Assembly: GCA_963779755.1 (NCBI GenBank)
Contig: CAVZZO010000003.1
Location: 384,001-448,000 of the forward strand
Length of the DNA: 64,000 nt
Reading direction: 5' to 3'
Source: an uncultured Gemmatimonadales bacterium
GTDB taxonomy: Bacteria > Gemmatimonadota > Gemmatimonadetes > Gemmatimonadales > GWC2-71-9
Both the position numbers and the translations under genes were made by a program. This document shows, one piece after another, positions 1,183 through 21,143 of this stretch (position 1 is its first letter; every line of letters starts with the position of its first letter). The notes under the pieces were generated by a model. That model made no database searches. It was not told the origin of the DNA and saw only the letters and a list, made by a program, of their open reading frames with translations.

Positions 1183-1211
1183 CGCTACTTGGCCGGAACT
1201 GAAGTTGGCCT

Positions 1212-1735
1212 CTACCGTGCCTTGGTTACATAGATGCGCTGGACTGTCTCTCTCGGCAGCCAGTGAATTGACTCGTCTTTGAACCGTATCTGAACCGCTT
1301 TCCGGGTGCTACCGTCCTCAAACACGTGGCTATTCGCGAAACCAGTTACGGTACCAATGAACGACTTGTCGGTCGTCAGGTATAGTTCCGTACCCACCAG
1401 AGGTTTGCAACGAGCTGCTGCCACTGGGGCCCGAGGGGGCGATGACGGGGGCTTCTGGTGTGGCTGGGATGCCGCGGGAGAAGGTCCGCTGGTTTGGACC
1501 AGCTAAGTTGGGCTTCGCAGCCGTCTGGTTGCCGGAGGACCGATGGGGAATTGAGTACGGGTGTTCCGCCACCAGGTAAGGCCCTCAACAGCATGATGAG
1601 CAAGAGTCCGCCTAGGACCACGATGGCGAAAGGTGACAAGGGCTTCTTGTGCGGAGCCTGTTTGCCGCACTGAGGGCAAACCTTTGCATCAGATCTGATT
1701 GAAGCACCGCATTCGCTACAAGGGCGAAGCGCCAT
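1212..1735 (-). CDS. Cassette: zinc-ribbon membrane protein (apparent frameshift)
   Basis: CxxC-x10-CxxC N-terminus followed by a TM helix; the C-terminal part continues in ORF 1212-1424. Confidence 0.6.
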
Positions 1736-1892
1736 CAGGTCCCCCCTGTTGCATGGTCAGCGGCAACGAAGTGCGCGTGTGCTGCAGCGCGATCCCTCAG
1801 GTTTTCACAAACTACGCTTCCACAGCCGCGCCGCTAGGTGGCCCGAGCGTGGGTCTACAGCCCGCGCGACCGGCCTGCAGAACGACGCGCTT

Positions 1893-2199
1893 GTTAGCTG
1901 CCGGCCGAGAGGACGCTACCTCTTCCGGCTGGGGACCCACGCTCGGAGGCACGGCCGCCGGCCGGAAGCCCAGCGGGGCGGAGGAAGATCGGATGCCTCC
2001 GAACCAGCTTGGGGCCTTCCGTGCCCCGAACGCCTCGCGGCCAGGAGTCTTGGGCGGCCCGGCGGAGTGTTCGATGCGACCCGCGCAAGGAGGCCGGTGC
2101 CGCCTCACGACGATCAAGCAGTTGAGGAAGCCCGGCGGCACCATCAGGAGCCCACCAAGAGATGAGCAACGGACAGCTTGGCTGGCTCGTGCAGCTAAC
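1893..2199 (-). other. Gene-less cassette family N1a (other copies 9193-9500, 17334-17637)
   Basis: About 305 bp between attC sites with no credible ORF; three near-identical copies, each with the same attC. Confidence 0.8.
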
Positions 2200-2322
2200 G
2201 AAGTGCGTTTCAGCGGCGGCGCGATGCCCGCTCCCCGACCGACGCTTCCGCAGTGCGACCGCACACGCCCGGGGATGCCCATCGGATAGACTGGCTCGTC
2301 CGCTGGAAACGCGAGTTAGACA

Positions 2323-2813
2323 GCGCAATCCAATGGGGACGAGCAATGACTTGGGCCCCTCGGTGCCGTGTTCTCGTGGTCCTTGCCGGTGCGAAATGAC
2401 TGAAAGTCCCGCAACTCACGCCGCTCATTCTCCTGTAGCTGGACGAGTTCTCTTACTCGCCAGATGGCCGATCTGCGGCCGTATCACCGTTAGCGGAAAC
2501 CTCGCCGTTGATGGAGGTCGATGACCAAGCTTCTCACCCTGTTCTCTCGAGGGGATCCTCAGTCGAGCCGATATATTTGCTCTGCCAAGCAACGACATAG
2601 CCCCATTCGCGATTCTTCATTATGAGAAGCAGAGAGAAGTACAGGTACTCCTGATCTCTTCTTTGCTGATCGACATCAGGAACAGCTCGTACTTTTGTGA
2701 CCGAAGGACACATACCGGGTCAAGGATGCGATTCCTGGCGCGTCCTCAAGGTGGATGCGGTCGGAGCGTGGCAGCGTGCTGTGGCTCTCTTGGCTCGAGA
2801 CGCTTCCCCCGCT
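2323..2813 (-). pseudogene. Degraded or error-rich copy of the cassette gene at 11968-12455
   Basis: Colinear with 11963-12500 but with many small deletions. Confidence 0.75.
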
Positions 2814-2947
2814 GGCTAACGAAGTGCGCGTGTGCTGCAGCGCGATCCCTCAGGTTCTCACAAACCTACGCTTCCACAGCCGCGGCGCCAGGAGGCCCGG
2901 GCGAGGGCCGGCGGTCCGCGCGACCGGCCTGCAGAACGACGCGCTTG

Positions 2948-3352
2948 TTAGGTTGCTGCAGGATGCCCGCTGCGCCGGCGCCATTCAAAGACGACGACCA
3001 GGGCGAGAACGAGCAGAATGGGAGCCGTCAGTACCCCTGGGGTATAGCCTCCTTGCTGCCAGGACCACAACGGATGACCGACGCCGTTGATGACTTCGAT
3101 GGTCACCCAGAACGTGACAATCGCTCCCGTCCCACGCCAGCCGCGCCTCACGGGCCAGATAAAGCACCAAACCCCAAAAGCAACGAGGGCGACATTGAGG
3201 ACCGCAAACCCGACCTGCCGGTTGCTCGACACTAAGCCGGTGAGAATGCGGGCTGGCGGGAAGGAGTCGTAGAGCTTGCCCAGATATTCCTCGACCGAGT
3301 GCGCTGCCTGGCCAAGTACCAGTGCTCCAAACGCCAAGTGAAAGCGAGACAT
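2948..3352 (-). CDS. Cassette: HXXEE-domain membrane protein (copy 1)
   Basis: HSVEE motif after TM1 and about 4 TM helices; the stop lies in the attC R'' box. Confidence 0.85.
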   Translation of the reverse strand: MSRFHLAFGALVLGQAAHSVEEYLGKLYDSFPPARILTGLVSSNRQVGFAVLNVALVAFGVWCFIWPVRRGWRGTGAIVTFWVTIEVINGVGHPLWSWQQGGYTPGVLTAPILLVLALVVVFEWRRRSGHPAAT

Positions 3353-3507
3353 GCTTGGCAGCAACCTAACGAAGTGCGCGTGTGCTGCAGCGCGATCCCT
3401 CAGGTTTGCACAGTCCTACGCTTCCTTAGCCGCGCCGCTAGGAGGCCCGAGCGAGGGCCGGCGACCCGCGCGACCGGCCTGCAGAACGACGCGCGTGTTA
3501 GACAGCG

Positions 3508-3750
3508 CTATCGCTGACCTTTGCGTTGTAGCACCCAAATGGCAATCAGGCACACTGGAGGAATCAAGAGGATTGCGGCGCCGCCAGTGAGGCCGGCCGG
3601 GTCGACACTGACTCCGCTCAGCCCGGGACCACTTGAGGGGAGATTGCTGAGCATGTTGATTGCACCAATGAGAATGGCACCTCCTGAGATCAGTACCCAG
3701 GCAACGCTCAGCCATACAATGCGGGATCTCGGCCAGGCACCGATCTTCAT
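3508..3750 (-). CDS. Cassette: small 2-TM hypothetical protein
   Basis: GGAGG RBS, fills the cassette, two hydrophobic segments. Confidence 0.75.
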   Translation of the reverse strand: MKIGAWPRSRIVWLSVAWVLISGGAILIGAINMLSNLPSSGPGLSGVSVDPAGLTGGAAILLIPPVCLIAIWVLQRKGQR

Positions 3751-3913
3751 GACTTGCCTCCTATTGATGCTCCGCGCTGGCTAACGGTCTGCGTTTCAGC
3801 GGCGGCGCGATGCCCCGCTCCCTCATAATCCTACGCTTCCTTACCGCGACCGCTAGATGTCCGAGCAATGCACCAGCGGCCTGCAGCACCGTGCCCGGCC
3901 GCTGCAAACGCTT

Positions 3914-4240
3914 GTTAGCTGCCGGCCGCAATGACATTCTCGGTTGCGATGACGCTGCCGGCAGGTGCGGAGTCCCCACCCCGGGAGGCCCGGCCGCCCC
4001 CTCGGAGCTCCGGCGGGGCGGAAGATCGCTGGACGCTTGTCCACCGGGAACGACGCTGACCCTGCCCCGACCGCCCCGCGGGGAGGGGCCCCGGGCGGCA
4101 TGGCGGAGCCTGCCAGACGACCCGCGCAAGGAGGCCGGTGCCGCCTCACCTCCGCCAACCAGCTGAGGAACTCCGGCGGCACCACCAGGAGCCCACCAAA
4201 AGATCAGCACTGGGAGGCCCGGCTGGCGCGTGCAGCTAAC
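3914..4240 (-). other. Gene-less cassette family N1b (related copies 4365-4690, 6082-6407, 15848-16170, 17766-18092, 20395-20769)
   Basis: About 325 bp (first cassette about 375 bp), no conserved ORF across copies, conserved GGTGCCGCC...GGCGGCACC stem. Confidence 0.8.
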
Positions 4241-4817
4241 GAAGTGCGTTTGAGCGGCGGCGCAATGCCCCGCGCTCTCACAAACCTACGCTTCCACAGT
4301 GCGGCCGCTAGATGCCGAGAACGGGCCAGCGGGCCGCGCCCCGGCCCGCCCGCTGGAAACGCTAGTTAGCTGCCGGCCGCATTGACATTCTCGGCTGCGA
4401 TGACGCTACCGGCAGGCCGGGGCCCCCACGCCGGGAGGCCCGGCCGCCCTCTCGGAGCTCCGGCGGGGCGGAGGATCGGCGGGCGCTGCCCAACGGGTAC
4501 GACGCTGACCCTGCCCCGACCGCCCCGCAGCAACGAGTTCTGGGCGGCATAGCGGAGCCTTCCAGACGACCCGCGCAAGGAGGCCGGTGCCGCCTCACCT
4601 CGACCAACCAACAGAAGGAGCTCCGGCGGCACCACCAGGAGCCCACCAAGAGATCAGCACTGGGCAGCCCGGCTGGCTCGTGCAGCTAACGAAGTGCGCG
4701 TGTGCTGCAGCGCGATCCCTCAGGTTCTCACAAACCTACGCTTCCACAGCCGCGCCGCTAGGAGGCCCGGGCGAGGGCCGGCGGTCCGCGCGACCGGCCT
4801 GCAGAACGACGCGCTTG

Positions 4818-5221
4818 TTAGGTTGCTGCAGGATGCCCGCTGCGCCGGCGCCATTCAAAGACGACGACCAGGGCGAGAACGAGCAGAATGGGAGCCGTCA
4901 GTACCCCTGGGGTATAGCCTCCTTGCTGCCAGGACCACAACGGATGACCGACGCCGTTGATGACTTCGATGGTCACCCAGAACGTGACAATCGCTCCCGT
5001 CCACGCCAGCCGCGCCTCACGGGCCAGATAAAGCACAAAACCCCAAAAGCAACGAGGGCGACATTGAGGACCGCAAACCCGACCTGCCGGTTGCTCGACA
5101 CTAAGCCGGTGAGAATGCGGGCTGGCGGGAAGGAGTCGTAGAGCTTGCCCAGATATTCCTCGACCGAGTGCGCTGCCTGGCCAAGTACCAGTGCTCCAAA
5201 CGCCAAGTGAAAGCGAGACAT
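4818..5221 (-). pseudogene. Cassette: HXXEE protein copy 2 (1-bp frameshift near 5001)
   Basis: Nearly identical to 2948-3352 but split into two ORFs. Confidence 0.8.
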
Positions 5222-5367
5222 GCTTGGCAGCAACCTAACGAAGTGCGTTTCAGCGGCGGCGCGATGCCCCGCTCCTCCACAATCCTACGCTTCCACAGCG
5301 CGACCGCTAGATCCGGGGGCAATGCACCAACAGGCAGCAGCACCGGCCCGCCCGCTGGAAACGCTAG

Positions 5368-5868
5368 TTAGGGTCGCAGGCGCTCGACACCCAAGTGAAC
5401 CGGTTTCCACGAGTCGAAACCGGTACCGATCAGCGCGCCGAGAGCACCCCACGTCAGGCCAGTACCGATTATGGCTCCGGCTTCCCCCTGACCTGCAGGT
5501 CGCTGCTCCGCTGTGCCGACCACATAGACCAAGGCCAGGCCGGCGCCCACGAGCGCACCGATCACCGCTCCTCGCCGTGCTTGGTTGCCTTGGCGTACTT
5601 CGACGAGGCTCAACCCGGCCGCGGGCCGGCGAATGGTGTCCGCGGCCCCCCTCGCAGTGCACGCGGGACTCGGGTAGCTGCAATACACGATAGTATCCGT
5701 CTGGGCACCGAGTGGCGACAGCAAACGCCCACGCGCTGGAGGAGCGAGGGACCACGTCAGACGCACCACACTCCCAACGGGGAGAACGGCTAGGGAGTCC
5801 CTCTTCTGGGCACCGGCAATCGCTGGCCACAGAAGGAGCAGGGCGACTGCAAAGAAGGCATGCCGCAT
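5368..5868 (-). CDS. Cassette: secreted or membrane hypothetical protein with Gly-rich C-terminal helices
   Basis: Signal peptide MRHAFFAVALLLLWPAIAGA and GAVIGALVGAG glycine-zipper-like segments; the stop lies in R''. Confidence 0.75.
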   Translation of the reverse strand: MRHAFFAVALLLLWPAIAGAQKRDSLAVLPVGSVVRLTWSLAPPARGRLLSPLGAQTDTIVYCSYPSPACTARGAADTIRRPAAGLSLVEVRQGNQARRGAVIGALVGAGLALVYVVGTAEQRPAGQGEAGAIIGTGLTWGALGALIGTGFDSWKPVHLGVERLRP

Positions 5869-6534
5869 GTGCCGGGCCCGTGGAAGGAGACCTTCTGCCA
5901 CTACTTGTTCTCCGTCCTCCAGCCGTGACCTAGTCGACTTGCTGCGCCCTAACGACCTGCGTTTCAGCGGCGGCGCGATGCCCCGCCCTTTCACAATCCT
6001 ACGCTTCCACAGCGCGGCCGCTAGATGTCCGAGCAATGCATCAGCGGGCGGCAGCACCGTGCCCGGCCGCTGCAAACGCTTGTTAGCTGCCGGCCGCAAT
6101 GACATTCTCGGCTGCGATGACGCTGCCGGCAGGTGCGGAGCCCCCGCGCCGGGAGGCCCGGCCGCCCACTCGAAGCCCCGGCGGGGCGGCAGATCGCTGG
6201 ACGCTGTCCACCGGGAATGAAGCTGACCCTGCCCCGACCGCCCCGCGCCGCGGTGCCTTGGGCGGCATGACGGAGCCTACCAGACGACCCGCGCACGGAG
6301 TCAGGTGCCGCCTCGGCTCCGCCAACCAACTGAGGAGCTCCGGCGGCACCACCAGGCGCCTACCAAGAGATCAGCACTGGGCGGCCCGGCTGGCGCGTGC
6401 AGCTAACGAAGTGCGCGTGTGCTGCAGCGCGATCCCTCAGGTTCTCACAAACCTACGCTTCCACAGCCGCGGCGCCAGGAGGCCCGGGCGAGGGCCGGCG
6501 GTCCGCGCGACCGGCCTGCAGAACGACGCGCTTG

Positions 6535-6939
6535 TTAGGTTGCTGCAGGATGCCCGCTGCGCCGGCGCCATTCAAAGACGACGACCAGGGCGAGAACGAG
6601 CAGAATGGGAGCCGTCAGTACCCCTGGGGTATAGCCTCCTTGCTGCCAGGACCACAACGGATGACCGACGCCGTTGATGACTTCGATGGTCACCCAGAAC
6701 GTGACAATCGCTCCCGTCCCACGCCAGCCGCGCCTCACGGGCCAGATAAAGCACCAAACCCCAAAAGCAACGAGGGCGACATTGAGGACCGCAAACCCGA
6801 CCTGCCGGTTGCTCGACACTAAGCCGGTGAGAATGCGGGCTGGCGGGAAGGAGTCGTAGAGCTTGCCCAGATATTCCTCGACCGAGTGCGCTGCCTGGCC
6901 AAGTACCAGTGCTCCAAACGCCAAGTGAAAGCGAGACAT
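6535..6939 (-). CDS. Cassette: HXXEE protein copy 3
   Basis: Same protein as 2948-3352. Confidence 0.85.
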   Translation of the reverse strand: MSRFHLAFGALVLGQAAHSVEEYLGKLYDSFPPARILTGLVSSNRQVGFAVLNVALVAFGVWCFIWPVRRGWRGTGAIVTFWVTIEVINGVGHPLWSWQQGGYTPGVLTAPILLVLALVVVFEWRRRSGHPAAT

Positions 6940-7082
6940 GCTTGGCAGCAACCTAACGAAGTGCGCGTGTGCTGCAGCGCGATCCTTCAGGATTTCACAA
7001 ACCTACGCTTCCTTAGCCGCGCCGCCAGGAGGCCTAGGAAGGGCCGGCGGACCGCGCGACCGGCCTGCAGAACGACGCGCTT

Positions 7083-7376
7083 GTTAGCAACCAGCTGCGC
7101 ACGGCGGCCTAGGCTAGCGCGGAGCCCGCGCGCGAAGCCCTGGCCGCCGCTGGGAACGGTGCGGCGCGGGGACGGCCCGGTGGCGTGGAACTCTGACGGC
7201 ACCTGCCCTGCCCCGACCGCGCCGGGCTCCAGAAGCCCTGGGCGGCGGATTCGTTTGAGCCTTTCTGCACGGAGGCGGGGCCGCCCGCAAGGAGTTGCTC
7301 TCGGGTTCCTGAGCTCCGCGGCCCTGATGGGGCCCACCAAAGAGACCCGCTGCGGTGCCTCGCTTGTGTTGCTAAC
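7083..7376 (-). other. Gene-less cassette family N2 (copies 7503-7799, 9967-10263, 11182-11482, diverged 14306-14612)
   Basis: About 295-305 bp with GTTAGCAAC...GTTGCTAAC ends and no conserved ORF. Confidence 0.8.
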
Positions 7377-7927
7377 GAAGTGCGCGTGTGCTGCAGCGCG
7401 ATCCTTCAGGATGTCACAAACCTACGCTTCCTTAGCCGCGCCGCCAGGAGGCTCGGTCGATGCCAGGCAGCCAGCGCGCCCGGCCTGCAGAACGACGCGC
7501 TTGTTAGCAACCAGCTGCGCACGGCGGCCTAGGCTAGCCCGGAGCCCGCGCCCCGAAGCCCTGGCCGCCCGCTGGGAACGGTGCGGCGCGGGGACGGCCC
7601 GGTGGCGTGGAACTCTCACGGCACCTGCCCTGCCCCGACCGCGCCGGGCTCCAGGAGCCCTGGGCGGCGGATTCGTTTGAGCCTTTTTGCACGGAGGGCG
7701 GGGCCGCCCGCAAGGAGCTGCTCTCGGGTTCCTGAACTCCGCGGCCCTCATGGGGCCCACCAAAGAGACCCGCTGCGGTGCCTCGCTTGTGTTGCTAACG
7801 AAGTGCGTTTCAGCGGCGGCGCGATGCCCCAGCCCTTTCACAATCCTACGCTTCCACAGCGCGACCGCTAGATGCCGGGGCTAGGCACCAAAAGGCAGCA
7901 GCCTCGGCCCGTCCGCTGGAAACGCTA

Positions 7928-8144
7928 GTTACAAGGCAGCGCGCTCTCGCCCGCGAGCGGGACCGAACCAAGATCGCTGGGCCGCCGCAAGGAGCGTTGG
8001 GCGCCGGCACCCGCCCGAACCTTCCCGATGCGCTTTGATGCCGGGCGGCCCGAACAGCGCCCTCACGGAGCTTTGGCGGCCACCACCAGATGCTTCTCAC
8101 AACGGCAAAGAATCAAGAACAGTCCGGCTTGCCTGCCGTGTAAC
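7928..8144 (-). other. Gene-less cassette family N3 (copies 14740-14951, 16991-17207; relatives 10836-11053, 11614-11828)
   Basis: About 215 bp with no credible ORF. Confidence 0.8.
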
Positions 8145-8270
8145 GAAGTGCGCGTGTGCTGCAGCGCGATCCTTCAGGATGTCACAAACCTACGCTTCCT
8201 TAGCCGCGCCGCCAGGAGGCTCGGTCGATGCCAGGCAGCCAGCGCGACCGGCCTGCAGAACGACGCGCTT

Positions 8271-8594
8271 GTTATGTGGCAACCACGCGGGCCGACGCTC
8301 CACACCGCGCGGCGATCTCTTCGGCCGCCTCGCAGAGCCCAGGGCGACTCCCAGGCCCGCATGCCCGGCCGCGTCAGAGCACTGAGGGCGCCGGCGCGAT
8401 GATCACACCCGAAAATGCTTGGGACCTTGCCCTGCCGGCGCCCATACGGGGCCGCGGCGCCACCACTGGATCGGAGCCCGCTGGGAATCCTGGCGGCCAG
8501 CGCCACAGCGGATCACAAAAGGCCACAAGCGAGGAGCCGTTCTGACTGCTGTACAGAAAGACCCAGGAACAGTCCGGCTTCCTTGCCACATAAC
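8271..8594 (-). other. Gene-less cassette family N4 (second copy 10390-10709)
   Basis: About 320 bp with a 12-bp terminal IR GTTATGTGGCAA; indels between copies break any frame. Confidence 0.75.
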
Positions 8595-8755
8595 GAAGTG
8601 CGTTTCAGCGGCGGCGCGATGCCCCGCTCCTACATGATCCTACGCTTCCATAGCGCGACCGCTAGATCCTCCGGAGATGAACCACGAGGCCGCAGCCCCG
8701 GCCCGCCCGCTGGAAACGCTAGTTAGACAGCAGGCAAGTGAGAGGCCGAGAAGCT

Positions 8756-9010
8756 TCATTCCGATTTCAGCTCAGTGCCGCCACGAAATGCCTTGAGCTC
8801 GGCGCCAGGAGTATCGAACGCGGAGATGGTGATCTCGGAACCCTGGAGCTCAATCAGCAGCGGCGTACCGGGAGTTCCGGTGACCTCAACTTCGAGATCA
8901 CCGTGTGAACCGATCGTGTATTCACCTGTCCAAGGCTCAAGGATCACCTTGCGGGCCTCGTCGTCAAGGTTCGCCAGTCGGAGCCGGAAGGTGATCGGTT
9001 TACTGGACAT
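8756..9010 (-). CDS. Cassette: hypothetical 84-aa protein
   Basis: Fills the cassette and has protein-like composition. Confidence 0.75.
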   Translation of the reverse strand: MSSKPITFRLRLANLDDEARKVILEPWTGEYTIGSHGDLEVEVTGTPGTPLLIELQGSEITISAFDTPGAELKAFRGGTELKSE

Positions 9011-9626
9011 AGCGGGCCGTTCCACGTTGGCAATTGGCTACAATGCGAAGGGTCCTGCTGGCTAACGAAGTGCGCGTGTGCTGCAGCGCGATCCCTCAGG
9101 TTTTCACAAACCTACGCTTCCACAGCCGCGCCGCTAGGTGGCCCGAGCGTGGGTCTACAGCCCGCGCGACCGGCCTGCAGAACGACGCGCTTGTTAGCTG
9201 CCGGCCGAGAGGACGCTACCTCTTCCGGCTGGGGACCCACGCTCGGAGGCACGGCCGCCGGCCGGAAGCCCTAGCGGGGCGGAGGAAGATCGGATGCCTC
9301 CGAACCAGCTTGGGGCCTTCCGTGCCCCGAACGCCTCGCGGCCAGGAGTCTTGGGCGGCCCGGCGGAGTGTTCCATGCGACCCGCGCAAGGAGGCCGGTG
9401 CCGCCTCACGACGATCAAGCAGTTCAGGAAGCCCGGCGGCACCATCAGGAGCCCACCAAGAGATCAGCAACGGACAGCTTGGCTGGCTCGTGCAGCTAAC
9501 GAAGTGCGCGTGTGCTGCAGCGCGGTCCTTCAGGATTTCACAAACCTACGCTTCCACAGCCGCGCCGCCAGGAGGCCGGAGTGTGGGCCAGGGGCCTGCG
9601 CGACTGGCCTGCAGCACGACGCGCTT

Positions 9627-9840
9627 GTTATATGGCGAAACGCTCTCGGCCTCAACCGGAACCGGGGCCAAATGCCTGGGCCGCCTCACGGAGACCGGGG
9701 CGCCGGCACCTGTTGGAACTTCTGCCGCGCTTTGATGCATGGCGGCCCGAACAGCGCCCTCAAGGAACTTGGGCGGCCACCACCAGATGCTGTTGTACAT
9801 CAAAAGAGAACGAGCAGTCCAGCCCGTTCGACCATATAAC
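9627..9840 (-). other. Gene-less cassette family N5, related to N3 (copies 19256-19469, 19596-19809)
   Basis: 214 bp, apparently identical copies. Confidence 0.8.
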
Positions 9841-11967
9841 GAAGTGCGCGTGTGCTGCAGCGCGATCCTTCAGGATGTCACAAACCTACTCTTCCTTAGC
9901 CGCGCCGCCAGGAGGCTCGGTCGATGCCAGGCAGCCAGCGCGCCCGGCCTGCAGAACGACGCGCTTGTTAGCAACCAGCTGCGCACGGCGGCCTAGGCTA
10001 GCCCGGAGCCCGCGCCCCGAAGCCCTGGCCGCCCGCTGGGAACGGTGCGGCGCGGGGACGGCCCGGTGGCGTGGAACTCTCACGGCACCTGCCCTGCCCC
10101 GACCGCGCCGGGCTCCAGGAGCCCTGGGCGGCGGATTCGTTTGAGCCTTTTTGCACGGAGGGCGGGGCCGCCCGCAAGGAGCTGCTCTCGGGTTCCTGAA
10201 CTCCGCGGCCCTCATGGGGCCCACCAAAGAGACCCGCTGCGGTGCCTCGCTTGTGTTGCTAACGAAGTGCGCGTGTGCTGCAGCGCGATCCCTCAGGATT
10301 CCACAAACCTACGTTTCCTTAGCCGCGCCGCTTGGAGGCCTCAGGAAGGGCCGGCGGCCCGCGCGACCGGCCTGCAGAACGACGCGCTTGTTATGTGGCA
10401 ACCACGCGGGCCGACGCTCCACACCGCGCGGCGATCTCTTCGGCCGCCTCGCGGAGCCCAGGGCGACTCCCAGGCCCGCATCCCGGCCGCGTCAGAGCAC
10501 GAGGGCGCCGGCGCGATGATCACACCCGAAAGTGCTTGGGACGTAGCCCTGCCGGCGCCCATACGGGGCCGCGGCGGCACCACTGGATCGGAGCCCGCGA
10601 GGAATCCGGGCGGCCAGCGCCGACGATAACAAAGCACGAGGAACCAGGAGCCGGCAGCTTCCTCAACAGAAAAGGAACCAGGAACAGTCCGGCGTCCTTG
10701 CCACATAACGAAGTGCGTTTCAGCGGCGGCGCGATGCCCCACTCCCTCACAATCCTACGCTTCCACAGCGCGACCGCTAGACCGCCGGGAGATCCCCAAG
10801 CGGCGGCAGCACCGGCCCGCTCGCTGGAAACGCTAGTCAGCCGCAACGCGCTCTCCGCCACGTGCGGAGCGGAGCCAAGATCCCTGGGCCGCCTCACGGA
10901 GATCGGGGCGCGGCACCGGTTAGAACTTCTGACGCGCTTTGATGTGCTGCGGCCGGAAAAGAGCCCTCACGGAGCTACGGCGGCCACCGCCAGATGCTTA
11001 TCACGAACGGAAGCGAATCATAGGAACAGTCCTCGGCTTGCTTGCGGTGTAACGAAGTGCGCGTGTGCTGCAGCGCGAACCCTCAGGTTTTCACAAACCT
11101 ACGCTTCCATAGCCGCGCCGCTAGGAGGCTTCGGGTCGATGCCAGGCAGCCCGCGCGACCGGCCTGCAGAACGACGCGCTTGTTCAGAGACCGGCTGCGC
11201 ACGGCGGCCTGAGCTAGATCGGAGCCCGCGCCCCGAAGCATTGGCCGCCCGCTGGGAACGGTGCGGCGCGGGGACGGCCCGGTGGCGTGGAAAACGCCGG
11301 GCACCTGCCCTGCCCCGACCGCGCCGGGCTCCAGGAGCCCTGGGCGGCGGAATCGCTTTGAGCCTTTTTCCACGGGGGGCTGGGCCGCTCGCAAGGAGCT
11401 GCTCTCGGATTCCTGAAATCGGCGGCCCGCCTGGGGCCGCCTCAAAGAAGACCCGCAGCCGTGCCTGGCTTGTGTTGCTAACGAAGTGCGTTTGAGCGGC
11501 GGCGCGATGCCTCAGGCCCTCACAAACCTACGTTTCCACAGCCGCGACCGCTAGGAGGGCCGGGAGATGCCCCAAGCGGCCGGCAGCGGCCGGCCCGCTA
11601 GCTGGAAACGCTAGTTACAGCTGCAACGCGCTCTCCGCCACGTGCGGAGCGGAGCCAAGATCCCTGGGCCGCCTCACGGAGATCGGGGCGCCGGCACCGG
11701 TTAGAACTTCTGATGCGCTTTGATGTGCGGCGGCCGGAAAAGCGCCCTCGCTGGAGCTCCGGCGGCCACCACCAGATGCTTTTCACAACAGAAGAGAAAG
11801 GAACAGTCCGGCTTGCTTGCGGTGTAACGAAGTGCGTTTCAGCGGCGGCGCGATGCCCCGCTCCCTCACAATCCTACGCTTCCGCAGCGCGACCGCTAGA
11901 TGCCCGGGGATGCACGATCAGAGAGCAGCCCCGGGCTCGTCCGCTGGAAACGCTAGTTAGACAGCGG

Positions 11968-12455
11968 CTAAATCCAATGGGGACGAGCAATGACTTCGGG
12001 CCCCCTCGGTGCCGTGTTCTCGTGGTCCTTGCCGGTGCGAAATGACTGAAAGTCCCGCAACTCACGCCGCTCATTCTCCTGTAGCTGGACGAGTTCTCTT
12101 ACTCGCCAGAAGATGGCCCATCCTGCGGCCGTATCACCGTTAGCGGCAAACCTCGCCGTTGATGGAGGTCGATGACCAAGCTTCTCATCCTGTCTCTTCT
12201 CGAGGGCATCCTCAGTCGAGCCCATATATTTGCCCTGCCAAGCAACGACATAGCCCCATTCTGCGAGATCCTCATTATGAGAAGCATAGAGAAGTAACAG
12301 GTACGTCCTGATCTCTTCTTCTGCTCATCGACATCCCGGAACAGCTCGTACTTTTGTGACCCGAAGGACACATACCCGGTCAAGGATGCGATTCCTGGCG
12401 CGTCCTCAAGGTGGATGCGGGGTACCGGAGCCAGGATGGCAAAATCCACTGCCAT
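11968..12455 (-). CDS. Cassette: hypothetical protein (apparent frameshifts)
   Basis: GGAGAGG RBS then MAVDFAILAPVP...; continues in ORF 11968-12225. Confidence 0.6.
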
Positions 12456-12634
12456 GACCTCTCCTTCTTGGCTTCTGAAAGAACGTGATCCCACACCGCT
12501 GGCTAACGAAGTGCGTTTCAGCGGCGGCGCGATGCCCCGCTCCCTCACAATCCTACGCTTCCACAGCGCGGCCGCTAGATGTTTGGAGTTGCGCCAGGCG
12601 GCAGCAGCCCCGGCCCGTCCGCTGGAAACGCTAG

Positions 12635-12867
12635 TTACGCAGCAGCCTGAAGGTCGTTCGGAGTGAGCCCGGTATGCTTCGAGATTCGGGCGAGCATTCT
12701 CTCGTTCGATGCCATTTCCTCTTGGTCAGTGGAAGGCAAAGACGAAGTCAGGCCAGCCTGCCCGACTCAACGTCCGGTGGGAGCCGGATTCGCGCTTGAC
12801 AGACCAGCCGATCCGGAGAAGAGCCGCCAAGACCCGTCGGGCCTTCGGCAGCTCCCCAGCTACTCAT
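12635..12867 (-). CDS. hicA: Cassette: HicA-family toxin (apparent frameshifts)
   Basis: Hand translation gives ..RRVLAALLRIGWSVKRESGSHRTLSRAGWPDFVFAFH..RMLARISKHTGLTPNDL, with the GSH motif. Confidence 0.8.
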
Positions 12868-13068
12868 GCGGCCTGAAAGCTAAGGTTCAGGAGTTCGGGG
12901 ACAGCCTCGCCATGCTCCAAGCGTTCGGCCAAGGAACGCAAGGCCAGGGCTTGGACCTCGCACGGCGTCAGGCCGCGTGACCCCGTAGGCCATCACGCCC
13001 GGGAGGTCCTGGACCTCCGCAAGCCAACGGCCATCAGTCTCCTGTTCGACCTCGATACGGAGAATCAC
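12864..13068 (-). CDS. hicB: Cassette: HicB-family antitoxin (apparent frameshift)
   Basis: IEVEQETDGRWLAEVQDLPGVMAYGVT is the HicB N-terminal signature; ATGA overlap with hicA. Confidence 0.85.
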
Positions 13069-13259
13069 GGCGTTCCTCCAAGGCTAGTTTGCTTGGCCCA
13101 AATCTAACTGGGAAGCGGCCTTGCTGCGTAACGAAGTGCGTTTCAGCGGCGGCGCGATGCCCCGCCCTTTCACAATCCTACGCTTCCTTACCGCGACCGC
13201 TAGATCCCCGGGAAATGCGCCAGCAGGCTGCAGCCCCGGCCCGCCCGCTGGAAACGCTA

Positions 13260-13596
13260 GTTAAATGGCAGCCGTCCACGAGAGGTGATCGATTCCGTTC
13301 CCCGATCTCCCCAACGCACGACTCCCCGGCCTTTTACCCCGCTAGCGGAGGACTGTGGCTCCGAGCGCTTGGATTTTGGATCTGGGCAACCCAGCCTGGG
13401 AGCAGACGTCTCTACGCGCCCCCTGAGCCCGCTACGAGATCCGGGGCCCGCTGAGCGCCCGCCGGAATGCACTAATCCAGGATTCCACCTGCGCTCGTGC
13501 CAAAGGCCTCATTCCTGAGCCGCCCAGTTGGCCGGGCCTTCCTCCGAAAGGAGCACCTCCTGGATCAGCCAAGGACGGCCGGCACGTCCATTTAAC
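13260..13596 (-). other. Gene-less cassette family N7 (second copy 19937-20266)
   Basis: About 330 bp; both copies have the same attC; no conserved ORF. Confidence 0.7.
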
Positions 13597-13742
13597 GAAG
13601 GGCGTTTCAGCAGCGGCGCGATGCCCCGCACCCTCAGCAATCCTACGCTTCCACAGCGCGAGCGCTAGATGCTTGGGAGACGCACCCAGTGGCGGCGGCA
13701 CCGGCCCGGCTGCTGCAAACACTGTTAGACAGCACTGCGCGA

Positions 13743-14164
13743 CTATCCGGTCTCAAAGGATATACCCGAGAAGTCGGGGGTCCGGTTGATCAGCGACTGG
13801 AAGCTCGCATCGCCCTCTACCACCGAAGCCCAGTCCTCATTGGCCGGGAAATCCATCGACGAGTGGTCCACTTCCACTATTCCTGGCGCAGGTCCAAAGC
13901 CCAACTCCACTACGAGGCGACCAATGAGCGCGTCCTGGGCCTGCGGAGCTTCGCTTTCGCGATCAGAGAATTGCCGGACTATAAGCAATGTCGCGTAGCC
14001 CTCATCTTCTTGGATCTGAACCGAAGCGAAGGTAGCAATCTGAGACTTCCCGCCGGAGTGCACCAGAACACGCGCCAGGTCGGCCACGGATCTAAGTGCG
14101 CCGGATTGAGGCCGTGGCGTTCAAGAGCTAACAGGAACTCAGGCCTAGCCCGAAATGCTTCCAT
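13743..14164 (-). CDS. Cassette: hypothetical protein (apparent frameshift)
   Basis: Two overlapping ORFs (13979-14164, 13743-14087) together fill the cassette. Confidence 0.6.
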
Positions 14165-15099
14165 TGGTGCTGGCTAAACGAAGTGCGCGTGCGCTGCAGC
14201 GCGAACCCTCAGGTTTTCACAAACCTACGCTTCCACAGCCGCGCCGCTAGGAGGCTGTCGGGTGGGTCGGCGGCCCGCGCGACCGGCCTGCAGAACGACG
14301 CGCTTGTTAGCAACCGGCTGCGATGACGCCGCCTGAGCCACATCGGAGCCCCGCCCGGAGCATTGGCCGCCCGAGCGGAACCTCGCGGCGCGGCGGCCTA
14401 GCCGGTGGTCGGGACAACGCCCGGGACCTACCCGCCCCGACCGCGCCGATCTCCAGGAGAGCTGGGCGGCGGAACCGCACCTCAGCGATTCCACGGCGCC
14501 TGGGTGCTGGGCCGTCTTGCGGTGCTCCGAAATCTCCTGGAAATCAGGCGGCCCGCCAGGAGCCGCCTCAAAGAAAGCACCCGGACAGCCCTGGCTGGCT
14601 CGTGTTGCTAACGAAGTGCGTTTCAGCGGCGGCGCGATGCCCCAGCCCTTTCACAATCTACGCTTCCACAGCGCGACCGCTAGATGCCGGGGCGAGGCAC
14701 CAAAAGGCAGCAGCCTCGGCCCGTCCGCTGGAAACGCTAGTTACAAGGCAGCGCGCTCGCGAGCGGGACCGAACCAAGATCGCTGGGCCGCCGCAAGGAG
14801 CGTTGGGCGCCGGCACCCGCCCGAACCTTCCCGATGCGCTTTGATGCCGGGCGGCCCTAACAGCGCCCTCACGGAGCTTTGGTTGGCCACCACCAGATGC
14901 TTCTCACAACGGCAAAGAATCAAGAACAGTCCGGCTTGCCTGCCGTGTAGCGAAGTGCGCCTCAGCTGCGGCGAAGAACCTGACTTCCTTCACAAACCTA
15001 CGTTTCCGCAGCGCGGCCGCTAGATCAGCGGGAGATGCGCCAAGCGGTCTCGCACCGGCCCGTCAGATGGAGGCGCTAGTTAGGCCGTGGCTCCGCGCG

Positions 15100-15690
15100 T
15101 TAATAGCCTTTCGGTTGCCATGCCGATGATCGTATCACGATTCGTGCAGGCTTCACACCGTCGCCCGACACCATAACGGTAAGGAAAACCACCCTGCTTT
15201 TCGAAGAGATCGTTATAGCGATACGGCAGTCCTTGTACATGGGGAATGAACGTGACTGTCTAGTCCTGAAGGATATCAAGTAGAGGAAATACCGCACCCC
15301 TCGAGCGAGATCCTGGGGTCGGTAGGCTCAGAACCGCTGACAGAAACCCCGTTAGGATACTTCACTATACTGGGACCTAACGGCATGCCCGGCATCGTCG
15401 AGATCTGAAAGTTGGTAAGGTAGGCCCGGCACGCCTTAGCTAGACGGAAGGACTTAGAGCTCTGACCTTGACTCGGAGATAGATCCCTGCCGCTGGAAGG
15501 CCCGTGGTTCTCCGGGTCAGTGTGATGAGACTTTCACATTCCCGGAATGTCAGGTTGAGCTATGAGCGCAACCACCATAGCCAGCACCTGGCTCGGCACG
15601 CAAAGCAATGAGGAAGCTGCAGAGGACGACAAGAAATGTCGGGAGAAGCTGGGCGAACGAAGCTGCTTGCTTAGGAGCGATCACGGTCTC
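15100..15690 (-). pseudogene. Cassette: lower-GC fragmented hypothetical gene
   Basis: About 640-bp lower-GC cassette with only short ORF pieces. Confidence 0.35.
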
Positions 15691-16338
15691 GGATGATCTT
15701 GGCCTCTCCCACGGCCTAACGGTCTGCGTTTCAGCGGCGGCGCGAGGCCCCGCTCTCTCATAATCCTACGCTTCCTTAGCGCGATCGCTAGATGCCTGGG
15801 CAAGGCACCGGCGGGCTGCAGCACCGTGCCCGCCCGCTGAAACGCTTGTTAGCTGCCGGCCGCAATGCCATTCTCGGCTGCGATGACGCTGCCACAGGTG
15901 CGGAGCCCCCAGCCGGGAGACCCGGCCGCCCGCTCGGAGCTCGGCGGGGCGGCAGACGCTGGACGCTAGTCCACCGGGAACGACGCTGACCTTGCCCCGA
16001 CCGCCCCGCGGGGAGGGGCCTCGGGCGGCATGGCGGAGCCTGCTAGACGACCCGCGCAAGCAGGCCGGTGCCGCCTCACCAGCGCCAACCAGCTGAGGAG
16101 CTCCGGCGGCACCACGAGGAGCCCACCAAGAGATCAGCACTGGGCGGCCCGGCTGGCGCGTGCAGCTAACGAAGTGCGCGTGTGCTGCAGCGCGATCCCT
16201 CAGGTTCTCACAAACCTACGCTTCCATAGCGCGCCGCCAGAAGGCCGCATGGCACCAACTGGCCGCAGCACCGGCCTGCAGAACGACGCGCTCGTTAGGC
16301 CGCAACGCGGGCACGGCCCGGAAACTCGACCTGCGAGT

Positions 16339-16834
16339 CTAGAGCTCCACGAATACCCGCGTGGCGGAATACATCAATGCTGCCGCCTCGCCGCATTGGC
16401 TTGAGAACTGGTCCACCCTACTGCCGAAACCCAGCTTCTCATAGAATTGACGGCTGTTGACCATTTCGGAAAATGCTATGAGGAGATCTCGAAGCTGGCG
16501 GACGCTGGACCATCGAACTGGCTAACCTGAGGGAACCACCCATCTGAGGCATGTCGCAAGCGCGCGCGGCAATGTAGTAGAAGCATCTGTGTGAAGCTGC
16601 ACTTCGAACCTTGCCTCATTCGAGCAGGCGTCGAGCGTCCTAACTCCTACCATTGCACCTCGCCTCTGGAAGTCCAGGCCACGGCTCGTCGAAACAGCGA
16701 ATCAGCTGTTCAGGCGCTCATCGACCTCCTCTCCGAGATCTCGCTGACCCTTCCCGAGAGCCAGAAAAGTCGCATACCTGGACGTGCATGCTCAGCTTGC
16801 GGATCGCAGACCCAAGGTAGTCATAAAGCTCCAT
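16339..16834 (-). pseudogene. Cassette: fragmented GNAT-like acetyltransferase
   Basis: The minus strand at 16427-16450 encodes QFYEKLGF, a GNAT C-terminal motif; the frames are broken. Confidence 0.45.
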
Positions 16835-18231
16835 CTGGTTCCGTGGGTATAGTGGCGCCTAACGAAGTGCGTTTCAGCGGCGGCGCGATGCCCCAGCCCT
16901 TACACAATCCTACGCTTCCACAGCGCGACCGCTAGATCCGGGGCTAGGCACCAAAAGGCAGCAGCCTCGGCCCGTCCGCTGGAAACGCTAGTTACAAGGC
17001 AGCGCGCTCTCGCCCGCGAGCGGGACCGAACAAAGATCGCTGGGCCGCCGCAAGGAGCGTTGGGCGCCGGCACCCGCCCGAACCTTCCCCATGCGCTTTG
17101 ATGCCGGGCGGCCCGAACAGCGCCCTCACGGAGCTTGGGCGGCCACCACCAGATGCTTCTCATAACGGCAAAGAATCAAGAACAGTCCGGCTTGCCTGCG
17201 GTGTAACGAAGTGCGCGTGTGCTGCAGCGCGATCCCTCAGGTTTTCACAAACCTACGCTTCCACAGCCGCGCCGCTAGGTGGCCCGAGCGTGGGTCTACA
17301 GCCCGCGCGACCGGCCTGCAGAACGACGCGCTTGTTAGCTGCCGGCCGAGAGGACGCTACCTCTTCCGGCTGGGGACCCACGCTCGGAGGCACGGCCGCC
17401 GGCCGGAAGCCCTGGCGGGGCGGAGGAAGATCGGATGCCTCCAACCAGCTTGGGGCCTTCCGTGCCCCGAACGCCCCGCGCCAGGAGTCTTGGGCGGCCC
17501 GGCGGAGTGTTCCATGCGACCCGCGCAAGGAGGCGGTGCCGCCTCACGACATCAAGCAGTTCAGGAAGCCCGGCGGCACCATCAGGAGCCCACCAAGAGA
17601 TCAGCAACGGACAGCTTGGCTGGCTCGTGCAGCTAACGGTCTGCGTTTCAGCGGCGGCGCGATGCCCCGCTCCCTCATAATCCTACGCTTCCTTACCGCG
17701 ACCGCTAGATGTCCGAGCAATGCACCAGCGGCCTGCAGCACCGTGCCCGGCCGCTGCAAACGCTTGTTAGCTGCCGGCCGCAATGACATTCTCGGTTGCG
17801 ATGACGCTGCCGGCAGGTGCGGAGTCCCCACCCCGGGAGGCCCGGCCGCCCCCTCGGAGCTCCGGCGGGGCGGAAGATCGCTGGACGCTTGTCCACCGGG
17901 AACGACGCTGACCCTGCCCCGACCGCCCCGCGGGGAGGGGCCCCGGGCGGCATGGCGGAGCCTGCCAGACGACCCGCGCAAGGAGGCCGGTGCCGCCTCA
18001 CCTCCGCCAACCAGCTGAGGAACTCCGGCGGCACCACCAGGAGCCCACCAAAAGATCAGCACTGGGAGGCCCGGCTGGCGCGTGCAGCTAACGAAGTGCG
18101 CGTGTGCTGCAGCGCGATCCCGACTTCCTTCACAAACCTACGTTTCCGCAGCGCGGCCGCTAGATCCCTCGGAGATGCCCCACCCGGCGGCAGCACCGGC
18201 CTGCAGAACGACGCGCTTGTTACACAGCACC

Positions 18232-18501
18232 CTAGAGGTCTTGGATCAGCCGCTCGTACTCGTCGTGGGAGCCAATCCAAAACCAAAGAATGAGCTCGCC
18301 CTCGCGCACGCCAAGAGCGCGATACCCCAGACTGACCCGGGCGGAGTAGATCGGCTGTGTGGCGTGGACTGGCTTGAAATGCAGGCTTGGGTGCTGCGGG
18401 TCGTCACGGAATTGCTGATAGGCCTTGCGGGCTCGCTCCTGCACATGGACCGGTAAGGCCCCGAACGCCTTCCGGAACCGGGCCGTGGTCCTGGAGATCA
18501 A
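18232..18501 (-). CDS. Cassette: RelE/ParE-like toxin
   Basis: TTG start overlapping the antitoxin stop; FRDDPQHPSLHFK..YRALG..WFWIGSHDEYER signature. Confidence 0.85.
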   Translation of the reverse strand: MISRTTARFRKAFGALPVHVQERARKAYQQFRDDPQHPSLHFKPVHATQPIYSARVSLGYRALGVREGELILWFWIGSHDEYERLIQDL

Positions 18502-18716
18502 AGCCGGTCGGGATCTAGAGCCTCTGATCGGCCGGCCCGATGCTCCTCCAGGGCCTCCTGGGCCAGCCTCTGCAGCTGATCTCCAGAGGCACCCAAGAGG
18601 GCTTCCCACCGCGCATCGGCGGCCAATTCTTCCAGGATCGCGGCGGCAAGCTCGTCCTGGTCCTTGGGGGGGAGCCGGGAGGCCACTTCAAAGGCCTTCT
18701 TCAGGTTACGGGTCAT
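18498..18716 (-). CDS. Cassette: cognate antitoxin
   Basis: 72-aa acidic protein directly upstream of the toxin and translationally coupled to it. Confidence 0.8.
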   Translation of the reverse strand: MTRNLKKAFEVASRLPPKDQDELAAAILEELAADARWEALLGASGDQLQRLAQEALEEHRAGRSEALDPDRL

Positions 18717-18721
18717 GCTGG

Positions 18722-18751
18722 ATGATATGGCAAAGGAGAGCGGCGCGCTAG
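18722..18751 (-). promoter_or_regulatory. Putative TA-cassette promoter (leaderless)
   Basis: CTAGCG-N18-TATCAT-N5-ATG on the minus strand. Confidence 0.5.
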
Positions 18752-18901
18752 CCGCGCCTCAGTGCTGTGTAACGAAGTGCGTTTCAGCGGCGGCGCGATG
18801 CCCCGCTCCCTCACAATCCTACGCTTCCACAGCGCGACCGCTAGATGCCGGGGGGATGCACCATCAGGCAGCAGCCCCGGCCCGCTCGCTGGAAACGCTA
18901 G

Positions 18902-19105
18902 TTATACGGAACCGCGACGGACCTCTTCGAGCACATCGCGGGCTCGACCATAATCTTCCTCGGCGACTACCCATACGCTGAACGGGTTCCCGTGAATGCC
19001 GGACAGAGCCTCGCCGCGTACGACGGCCGGAATACCCGCAGCCTCAAGGGCCAGCTTCAGGCTGTATGCATCTGTCGCCACTGATGACCGGAGTAGTTCA
19101 CGCAT
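18902..19105 (-). CDS. Cassette: DUF2007-like putative signal transducing protein
   Basis: AYSLKLALEAAGIPAVVRGE...VWVVAEEDYGRARDVL pattern. Confidence 0.8.
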   Translation of the reverse strand: MRELLRSSVATDAYSLKLALEAAGIPAVVRGEALSGIHGNPFSVWVVAEEDYGRARDVLEEVRRGSV

Positions 19106-20762
19106 CCGTATTGCCTGGGTGCCGTATAACGAAGTGCGCGTGTGCTGCAGCGCGGTCCTTCAGGATTTCACAAACCTACGCTTCCACAGCCGCGCCGCCA
19201 GGAGGCCGGAGTGTGGGCCGGGGCCTGCGCGACTGGCCTGCAGAACGACGCGCTTGTTATATGGCGAAACGCTCTCGGCCTCAACCGGAACCGGGGCCAA
19301 ATGCCTGGGCCGCCTCACGGAGACCGGGGCGCCGGCACCTGTTGGAACTTCTGCCGCGCTTTGATGCATGGCGGCCCGAACAGCGCCCTCAAGGAACTTG
19401 GGCGGCCACCACCAGATGCTGTTGTACATCAAAAGAGAACGAGCAGTCCAGCCCGTTCGACCATATAACGAAGTGCGCGTGTGCTGCAGCGCGGTCCTTC
19501 AGGATTTCACAAACCTACGCTTCCACAGCCGCGCCGCCAGGAGGCCGGAGTGTGGGCCAGGGGCCTGCGCGACTGGCCTGCAGAACGACGCGCTTGTTAT
19601 ATGGCGAAACGCTCTCGGCCTCAACCGGAACCGGGGCCAAATGCCTGGGCCGCCTCACGGAGACCGGGGCGCCGGCACCTGTTGGAACTTCTGCCGCGCT
19701 TTGATGCATGGCGGCCCGAACAGCGCCCTCAAGGAACTTGGGCGGCCACCACCAGATGCTGTTGTACATCAAAAGAGAACGAGCAGTCCAGCCCGTTCGA
19801 CCATATAACGAAGTGCGTTTCAGCGGCGGCGCGATGCCCCGCCCTTTCACAATCCTACGCTTCCTTACCGCGACCGCTAGATCCCCGGGAAATGCGCCAG
19901 CAGGCTGCAGCCCCGGCCCGCCCGCTGGAAACGCTAGTTAAATGGCAGCCGTCCACGAGAGGTGATCGATTCCGTTCCCCGATCTCCCCAACGCACGACT
20001 CCCCTACCCCGCTCGCGGAGGACTGTGGCTCCGAGCGCTTGGACTTCGGATCTGGGCAACCCAGCCTGGGAGCGACGTCTCTACGCGCCCCCTGAGCCCG
20101 CTACGAGATCCGGGGCCCGCTGAGCGCCCGCCGGAATGCACTAATGCAGGGGTTCTACCTGCGCTCGTGCCAAAGGCCGCATTCCTGAGCCGCCCAGTTG
20201 GCCGGGCCTTCCTCCGAAAGGAGCACCTACTGGATCAGCCAAGGACGGCCGGCACGTCCATTTAACGAAGTGCGTTTCAGCGGCGGCGCGATGCCCCGCT
20301 CCCTCACAATCCTACGCTTCCTTACCGCGACCGCTAGATGTCCGAGAAATGCACCAGCGGGCTGCAGCACCGTGCCCGCCCGCTGCAAACGCTTGTTAGC
20401 TGCCGGCCGCAATGACAATTTCGGGTGCGATGACGCTGCCGGTATGTGCGGAGCCCCCGCGCCGGGAGACTACGGGCCGCACGGCGCGCTGCAACCGGCA
20501 GAAGCCGGCGCCGTCGGCGGCCAGCTGACGCGCTAGGAGAAGGCAGCGACGCTCTCCGAACCCGCTCGGACTGCACCTTCCTTGCCATGGAGCCGCCCCG
20601 CGGAGAGAAACCTTGGGCGGCATCGCGGAGCCTTCCAGGCGACCCGCCGCAAGGAGGCCTGGTGCCGCCTCACCGCTACCAACGCAACTGCAGAGTTCCG
20701 GCGGCACCACCAGAGCGCTCTCACCAAGAGATCAGCACTGGAGCGGCCCGGCTGGCGCGTGC

Positions 20763-20830
20763 AGCTAACTATGAATTCGATTGCGCGCATGGGCAGGGGG
20801 TCGGCGCCTGAGATGTCTTTCTAACCAGGC
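20763..20830 (-). other. attI site
   Basis: The first cassette starts at GTTAGCT (20763-20769) with no attC upstream; a second GTTAGA lies about 55 bp further upstream. Confidence 0.7.
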
Positions 20831-20969
20831 AGGCTCTGCCGCAATCAAGCACCCATCGACGTAGCACTTAGGCCCTTGGTTGATCTTTGCTGTCGTTCCG
20901 GAAAAGCGCAAGAGGTGTCGATGTAGGAGGCCCGGAGTCTCTGTTACAGGTAACAGCGCCCTCCTCCTG

Positions 20970-21071
20970 GCGCTGTCCTCTGCACGACCCTCCCAGCGCC
21001 ATCCTCTGCACGACCCTCCCAGCGCTGTCCTCTGCACGACCCTCCCAGCGCCGTCCTCGGCGACCCTCCCA
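20970..21071. repeat. 26-bp tandem repeat x4
   Basis: GCGCTGTCCTCTGCACGACCCTCCCA units, the last one shortened. Confidence 0.9.
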
Positions 21072-21143
21072 ACGCTGTCTTCGCACCGCGGTCCTCTTTT
21101 GCACTGCCCTCCTAGGTGTGCCCCATCCCCCCCCTCCCCGCCG

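Follow-up and report, generated by a model that had tools for sequence, protein, structure and literature searches.

We analysed a 64,000-nucleotide (nt) stretch of DNA from an uncultured Gemmatimonadales bacterium (positions 1..64,000, corresponding to G000:C3:384001-448000; hereafter the window), which carries an integron with an array of cassettes separated by attC recombination sites. Nearly every attC of this genome holds at its centre a conserved box, GGAAGCG-TAGG(A/T)T-TGTGA, and the hexamer within it fits the -10 consensus deduced for the host. The interpretation that we favour from these sequences, and to which we give an even chance, is that the box is a weak, -10-driven promoter of the sigma70 family reading into the next cassette. 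Judged on this genome alone, it would be a weak promoter at most. The elements of one example attC are as follows.

11822..11962, minus strand: example attC, with R'' GTCTAAC at 11962-11956 and R' GTTACAC at 11828-11822, about 134 base pairs (bp) from TAAC to GTT
11866..11883, minus strand: conserved central box GGAAGCG-TAGGAT-TGTGA, mostly unpaired in the predicted bottom-strand fold
11871..11876, minus strand: -10-like hexamer TAGGAT (TAGGTT in the other attC type), facing the next cassette
11893..11899, minus strand: -35-like block cT(A/G)GCGG, private to this genome, with a 16-bp spacer in its best host-matrix register, T(A/G)GCGG; the block doubles as the 5' arm of a small hairpin
11864..11865, minus strand: predicted start site, the 6th-7th base past the hexamer and about 36 nt before the crossover
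11875..11880, plus strand: opposite-strand -10-like hexamer TACG(C/T)T, which has the TA step in common with the first and would face its own cassette

A preliminary description of the window had held that the attC centre is conserved in all attC types as a CT(A/G)GCG -35 and a TAGG(A/T)T -10 element, and its coordinates were exact (minus strand: CTAGCG 11899-11894, TAGGAT 11876-11871, crossover G 11828). TAGG(A/T)T was present in 36 of the window's 40 complete attC sites and the looser TAnnnT in 38; CT(A/G)GCG lay 17 nt upstream of the hexamer in 36, and both elements were found in 33. In the 60-site array, TAGG(A/T)T, TAnnnT and CT(A/G)GCG occurred in 53, 57 and 49 sites, respectively. The distance from the hexamer end to the crossover G was 41-43 nt in all intact sites. 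The full pattern first described, including T(G/A)TGA, occurred 30 times, always on the minus strand and within the array, and a shorter version occurred 34 times in positions 1-21000 against a mean of 0.01 over 200 dinucleotide shuffles, which shows that the pattern is a repeat and nothing more.

Sixty-one of the 68 attC sites of the genome were aligned (7 were dropped, having no clear left end under the rule applied), and the alignment separated two attC types, unlike in their arms and flanks but with a common centre. Over 59 unique sites, GGAAGCG-TAGG.T-TGTGA was 85-100% conserved per column, the A/T position excepted, and the CT(A/G)GCGG block 90-97%, the A/G column excepted, with flanks mostly at 30-80%. 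The 7th base after the hexamer was a purine in 55 of 55 unique sites. A search for the box outside the arrays yielded no occurrence elsewhere in this genome. On the recombining (bottom) strand the hexamer is predicted to be mostly unpaired (pairing 0.0-0.5 in four genomes), so base pairing does not account for its conservation.

Long, conserved centres are usual in the attC of chromosomal integrons, and the Vibrio repeats are reportedly an instance of the long, host-specific kind. We consider it improbable that the box has no function, the centre having been inherited or homogenised from a common attC template and the -10 match being due to chance. Published descriptions of long, host-specific attC with branched centres in chromosomal integrons (PMC5027507) fit such an origin. 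The box also scores near background, and a search with these attC by BLAST (Basic Local Alignment Search Tool) matched none of 60 relatives. Left unexplained, however, would be two attC types that are unlike in arms and both flanks and yet have the same centre, a box-crossover distance that is fixed across genera while length and upstream sequence change, and the pattern- and spacing-specific enrichment across unrelated attC families described below.

The host's own promoter motif was derived from about 3600 genes called by a simple hexamer model. TAnnnT stood 5-8 nt before the ATG in 250 genes, and control distances gave 51-55. Genome-wide, some 200 genes in excess of background look leaderless, and genes for the integron integrase (intI), here and in many relatives, are of this kind. 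The -10 consensus was TAnn(T)T, with T at position 5 in 67%, and the -35 was a weak, cTTGCCC-like element at 17 bp, about 39% of native leaderless sites having none; this matrix comes from sequence and not from mapped start sites, and about one fifth of its training set is expected background. TAGGTT occurred in 7 of the 250 native sites, one of them with the TAGGTTTGT context, the same as in attC. Leaders of tRNA genes show TTGnnn-N17-TAnnnT, that of tRNA-Asn reading TTGCCC-N17-TAGGAT. The reading of the attC hexamer as a -10 was thereby supported, since it fits the host consensus and is found in native leaderless and tRNA promoters. The sites that had been adduced in its support are likewise real:

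22142..22147, minus strand: TAGGTT, 5 nt before the intI ATG (22136), leaderless-type -10
25772..25785, minus strand: TAGATT, 7 nt before the ATG of an IS630 transposase, native leaderless-type -10
35947..35960, minus strand: TAGATT, 7 nt before the rpiB ATG, native leaderless-type -10
18716..18751, minus strand: leader of the antitoxin-like open reading frame in a ParE-like toxin-antitoxin cassette, cTAGCGC-N17-TATCAT-N5-ATG (described earlier as CTAGCG-N18-TATCAT), its own promoter-like leader

Among 63 intI upstream regions, 18 (this one included) have TAnnnT 5-8 nt before an in-frame start, with varying middle bases. The inferred TAnn(T)T with an upstream TTG resembles the motif TA[ATC][ATC][AT]T, with upstream TTG, measured in Chlorobaculum by differential RNA sequencing (bioRxiv 10.1101/172254). 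The RpoD-like promoter of Bacteroidetes is TAnnTTTG (PMC7366714), and one attC type, reading TAGGTTTG, resembles it. As a consensus for this lineage TAnnTTTG was rejected: native tails are mostly TC or CC, and the relatives' attC showed no enrichment (0.4 vs 0.4). A scan for standard TTGACA/TATAAT promoters, which is unsuited to this host, found 1 site against 1.9 in shuffled sequence, none in attC. The genome encodes four short RpoD-like sigma factors (C3:521493, C3:966947, C1:1700473 and C3:1244713; 251-361 amino acids from the first ATG), none of which exceeds the RpoD cut-off.

To place the box in the wider lineage, we looked for integrases in 301 genomes of the order, found them in 182 and fetched their surroundings (111 loci, some overlapping). 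An arm-pairing finder returned 282 unique attC from 61 loci, forming 69 families at 62% identity, some false calls being likely among them; the top strand was defined as the integrase strand, which agrees with arm asymmetry in 120 vs 25 decided cases. TAnnnT was found on the top strand of 34.3 of the 69 families, against 16.6 +/- 3.4 after shuffling, and none of 300 shuffles reached the observed value; because attC families are kin, such counts overstate significance and are not probabilities, a first point that weakens our interpretation. Among the 64 patterns of the form XYnnnZ, TAnnnT ranked first (z 5.5, runner-up 2.9), and the excess depended on the gap of three: with other gaps or letter orders, z was 0-2.1. 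It persisted when clustering was done at 55% and 70%, and also with every TAGG[ATG]T family removed (25.5 of 58 vs 12.6). In the host's taxonomic family (f1) the enrichment was confined to the top strand (18.2 of 31 vs 7.4; bottom strand 7.7 vs 6.4). At a spacing of exactly 17 bp, 12 of 37 families scored above 2 bits on the host -35 matrix, which was trained on host leaderless sites only; the 24 other offsets gave 1.25 families on average and 5 at most, and non-TAnnnT anchors gave 0 of 58. The -35s of the 12 families lie 0 to 47 nt into the attC core, a spread that one fixed hairpin geometry would not explain. A promoter-like element in attC, of the kind proposed at the outset, recurs in unrelated families of the order as a top-strand -10-like hexamer with a -35 at 17 bp. 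In some families, swaps limited to the middle bases were seen (TAGGTT/TATACT; TACAGT/TAAGTT/TATGGT), and the -7 T was the best-kept hexamer position (deviation 0.04). Stop-codon bias was rejected as the cause of the pattern, stop-codon patterns not being enriched.

Further results weigh against the box being a promoter. On the host matrix, TAGGTT-type boxes score 7.7 bits, at the 25th percentile of native sites; TAGGAT-type boxes, at about 5.0 bits, fall short of the native 10th percentile and come close to the median of TAnnnT in coding sequence. The median box outscores 67% of such coding TAnnnT. About half of the attC families lack such a promoter-like element, and among the 26 families of four or more members, 11 have no consensus TAnnnT. 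Core and middle hexamer positions did not differ significantly in conservation within families (Wilcoxon p = 0.09, 15 families), and by eye about 9 of the 12 families with a -35 look independent. Overall, the enrichment extended to the bottom strand (20.3 vs 13.3, a value reached in 4 of 300 shuffles), and taxonomic family f2 showed mild enrichment on both strands; the attC families at two of its loci, L061 and L080, have TAGGAT on the bottom strand only, in a paired arm, and are counter-examples to the top-strand rule. In an underpowered outgroup of 158 other loci, 26 families gave 10.9 vs 7.8 +/- 1.9, with no gap specificity and false attC calls included; the gammaproteobacterial class contributed just 5 families in 20 loci, again with false calls.

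Conservation across genera adds to these objections. Of 401 genomes of the phylum, 22 contain the exact box with at most one mismatch; most of them belong to one genus of the host's family, and several single matches lie outside attC. The 13 exact matches in viral contigs, when inspected, were not clearly set in an attC and appear fortuitous. From 13 other genomes we assembled a set of 87 homologous attC, chosen by their arms only. The consensus kept across genera is GG(A)A(R)CG-T(A)GGWT-WGTG, and the box-crossover distance is 41-43 nt throughout, although the attC differ in length (about 95-135 nt) and in all that lies upstream. The -7 T is kept in 100% of sites, the next G in 99% and the -12 T in 85%, the -11 A in only 65%; the neighbouring G and GTG columns are kept in 85-99%. 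The hexamer is intact in 49 of the 87 sites, and one genome (G155), with 21 sites, departs from the consensus at -11 in 43% of them. The presence of the element in nearly every attC therefore holds for this genome and fails in the other genera. Two loci of G155 (L250 and L354) have, in one array, intact TAGGAT together with broken TCGGAT, TTGGAT and TTAGAT in otherwise identical boxes; this mixed array is a natural test set for on and off promoter variants.

A pure -10 would need none of the GGAA, CG, GG or GTG that accompany the hexamer, which are rare in native sites: among the 250 native promoters, upstream CG occurs in 11, GG in 8, GGAA in 9 and GTG in 5, and G at hexamer position 4 is disfavoured (13%). 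An alternative that we think unlikely, while taking it seriously, is that the 17-nt box is a sequence-specific signal unrelated to cassette expression, either a site bound by a host or integron protein on single-stranded attC or its RNA or an easily opened spot, opened possibly by RNA polymerase, that aids hairpin extrusion, with transcription of the next cassette incidental. The conservation of those extra columns across genera, which equals or exceeds that of the -11 A, points this way, as do their rarity in native promoters, the confinement of the box to arrays, its predicted unpaired state and the known effect of the loop on folding and strand choice (PMC5027507). It leaves unexplained why, across the order, families lacking the box show a gap-specific TAnnnT excess, and why the -35 signal peaks at 17 bp. 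Moreover, the GWT and GWTMW patterns of an integrase secondary site (bioRxiv 10.1101/2022.09.11.507474) were not enriched (15.6 vs 14.0; 26.1 vs 25.9), the TAnnnT excess without GWT being 21.9 vs 10.9, and the top strand is rich in G (GC skew +0.08), whereas a skew of the opposite sign is reported to stabilise the bottom strands of mobile-integron attC (PMC5027507). Nor was a LexA-like match to the upstream regions of lexA and recA found, and the box was rejected as a LexA site of the SOS (DNA damage) response because it is missing outside arrays and lexA and recA have a different repeat. Their leaders (approximately C1:2156069-2156130 and C1:1925940-1925975) both contain the direct repeat TTCGG-N6-TTCGG, spaced 11 nt, which is a candidate for the lineage's LexA box. 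In the intI leaders of several relatives, TTCG is present some 30 nt ahead of the -10.

The highly conserved GTG after the hexamer also raises the question of a translation signal, in which Shine-Dalgarno-like GGAAG/AGGA and a GTG start would open a short reading frame easing ribosomes through the attC hairpin. Short open reading frames in attI and attC can couple translation (PMC8876359). The GTG frame, however, stops after three codons in one attC type and crosses the crossover in the other, and since the crossover distance varies between 41 and 43 nt no reading frame is kept; we find this explanation hardly credible.

The preliminary claim of CT(A/G)GCG as a conserved -35 found no support. 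This region is not conserved in the 87 homologous attC, a further point against our interpretation, and the block is private to the genome. On the host matrix the block averages 1.8 bits at a 16-bp spacer vs -0.9 at 17, shifted by one base; because the leader of the ParE-like cassette has the same -35 register at the canonical 17 bp, the register first given is probably one base off. The block can also form one arm of a 4-5 bp hairpin. The changes seen at its paired positions are all one-sided (T-A/T-G and A-T/G-T), and two of the pairs have 7 and 23 G-G mismatches, respectively, which makes the hairpin a possible structure and no more.

The direction of the proposed promoter is likewise only partly borne out. 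That it is aimed at the next cassette agrees with the top-strand-only enrichment in the host's family; against it, the opposite strand carries a comparable -10, TACG(C/T)T, a TAnnnT with the same TA step, in 39 of the 40 sites. The shared step (A-N3-TA-N3-T) could then represent overlapping -10s with backward or two-way output and antisense RNA into the cassette's own body, which we consider highly improbable. The -10 medians are 6.7 bits on the bottom and 6.4 bits on the top strand, and overlapping -10s in bacteria are known to yield divergent starts at spacings of 18, 23 and others (bioRxiv 10.1101/2020.01.31.928960). The bottom strand has no -35 signal, however (median -0.75 vs +0.1 bits on top), the upstream A is untypical of other families (8% A four bases before the hexamer), and in the host's family the enrichment is on the top strand only.

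If the box is a promoter for the next cassette, the housekeeping RNA polymerase would fire at the centre of attC, driven mainly by the -10 hexamer, with CT(A/G)GCG as a minor, genome-specific helper at most. RNA would start at the purine about 36 nt before the crossover and run through the right arm into the next cassette; as attC lies at the 3' end of its cassette after integration, the promoter would serve the downstream neighbour. Gene cassettes without a -10 in their own leader, 23 of 29, would depend on the attC promoter or on read-through; gene-less bodies mostly have no -10 near their 3' end either. Strength would vary by attC variant, TAGGTT being stronger than TAGGAT and the TCGGAT-type copies in relatives silent, and a further constraint would preserve the flanking GGAA/CG and GTG. 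The missing cassette promoter (Pc), with no TAnnnT from the intI stop to attI, was dropped as evidence, 99 of 388 comparable intergenic strands likewise having none; a second integron of this genome, on contig C1, has two TAnnnT in that interval.

Promoters within cassette arrays are known. The closest parallel is cassette 20/21 of Vibrio sp. DAT722 (Michael & Labbate 2010, PMC2945992), where in a large array a sigma70-type promoter overlaps attC and drives the next cassette. There the -35 is common to several attC and the -10 unique to one cassette, whereas in the present array it is the -10 that the sites have in common, and nearly every attC contains it entirely. Gene-less cassettes act as promoter carriers for their downstream neighbours in the superintegrons of Vibrionaceae (Blanco et al. 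2024, PMC11014356), where one start site, in cassette F2, was mapped within an attC, and oral Treponema integrons (PMC6557892) combine promoter-bearing gene-less cassettes with a reverse layout. The promoters in these two groups lie mostly in cassette bodies and differ per cassette, whereas the candidate described here stands in the recombination site of all cassettes. The attC of sedentary chromosomal integrons (PMC5027507) resemble those of this genome in RYYYAAC/GTTRRRY cores, paired arms, a long centre and genome-specific families; their centre is variable and acts via folding and base skew, and the available part of that article describes no promoter-like box conserved across genera. Group IIC-attC introns with outward promoters (PMC3001079) also deliver at attC a promoter that expresses downstream cassettes, but from an inserted kilobase-size intron, and no such intron is involved here. 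No attC-borne promoter was found in the available part of a review of cassette expression (PMC8876359), and a literature search whose coverage excluded subscription papers and supplements found no lineage-wide promoter within attC and no map of transcription start sites for this lineage.

The integron itself is laid out as follows.

21144..22136, minus strand: integron integrase intI (TIGR02249, 448.5 bits vs a cut-off of 265)
1..20769, minus strand: cassette array with 40 complete attC and one cut off by the window start
20763..20769, minus strand: attI crossover GTTAGCT, predicted from the cassette junction pattern, at the array head downstream of intI

The array lies next to the integrase on the minus strand and intI has the orientation of the cassettes, a reverse layout in which the integron resembles the inverted-integrase group already described (PMC4889954). 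Contig C3 holds 60 attC, and contigs C1, C2 and C4 hold 8 further ones. The sites have AAC/GTT cores and complementary arms folding on the bottom strand and are repeated between cassettes; each of 10 folds had paired arms, and in some the outer R boxes paired too. Identical cassettes at several array positions and in the second integron on C1 are at most an indirect sign that the integrase recombines these sites. The attC ending at C3 380795, 374318 and 366041 and at C1 684076 have had their left end swapped for one shared foreign end, which is consistent with an attC-targeting insertion sequence.

Of the window's 40 cassettes, 26 appear gene-less from inspection of open reading frames alone. 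The gene-less cassettes (window 1765-20769) have a GC content of 62-74% and form five related families confined to this genome's arrays; the first cassettes of the integrons on C3 and C1 come from one such family. No homologues of the gene-less bodies were found in 342 loci, and they were rejected as decayed attC, the best match being no better than an expectation value (E) of 2.8. Cassette 2197-2818 is a degraded copy of cassette 11826-12505, and its attC is without the box (TCGGTC). In an HXXEE-domain cassette (junctions 6955, 5237 and 3368) the cassette's own junction makes a second TAGGTT, 10 nt before the ATG. Terminator-like hairpins with a T-run were seen just past the crossover at 19777-19798, 19437-19458, 9808-9829 and 10677-10693, in one gene-less family (19807-type) and one other cassette (10707). 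They would trim an attC-started RNA to about 70-80 nt; as a general opening of gene-less cassettes such terminators were rejected, being clear only in that family and in 10707. An Rfam scan of positions 1-24000 gave nothing credible (one match, E 0.1).

In the textbook integron only cassettes near one promoter are expressed and the others are a silent memory, and the attC centre is thought to act by its shape and not by its sequence. The corresponding view of a gradient from Pc is stated in a review (PMC8946536). As a tentative extension, which on the sequences compared here we regard as possible and would still rather bet against, the reverse integrons of the order may have let the recombination site take over the role of the cassette promoter. 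A housekeeping promoter would then stand in the loop of about half of the attC families, and each cassette, whatever its place in the array, would be transcribed from the attC of its upstream neighbour. Shuffling would tune expression by exchanging the upstream attC variant for one with a strong, weak or dead -10, and gene-less cassettes would be movable promoter carriers or templates of structured RNAs. If this is true, neighbour-dependent expression would supplant the distance gradient, and distant cassettes could be expressed without a move to the front. The variable loop would gain a function of its sequence, and there would be a reason to retain many gene-less cassettes. Such cassettes would turn on genes wherever they are inserted.

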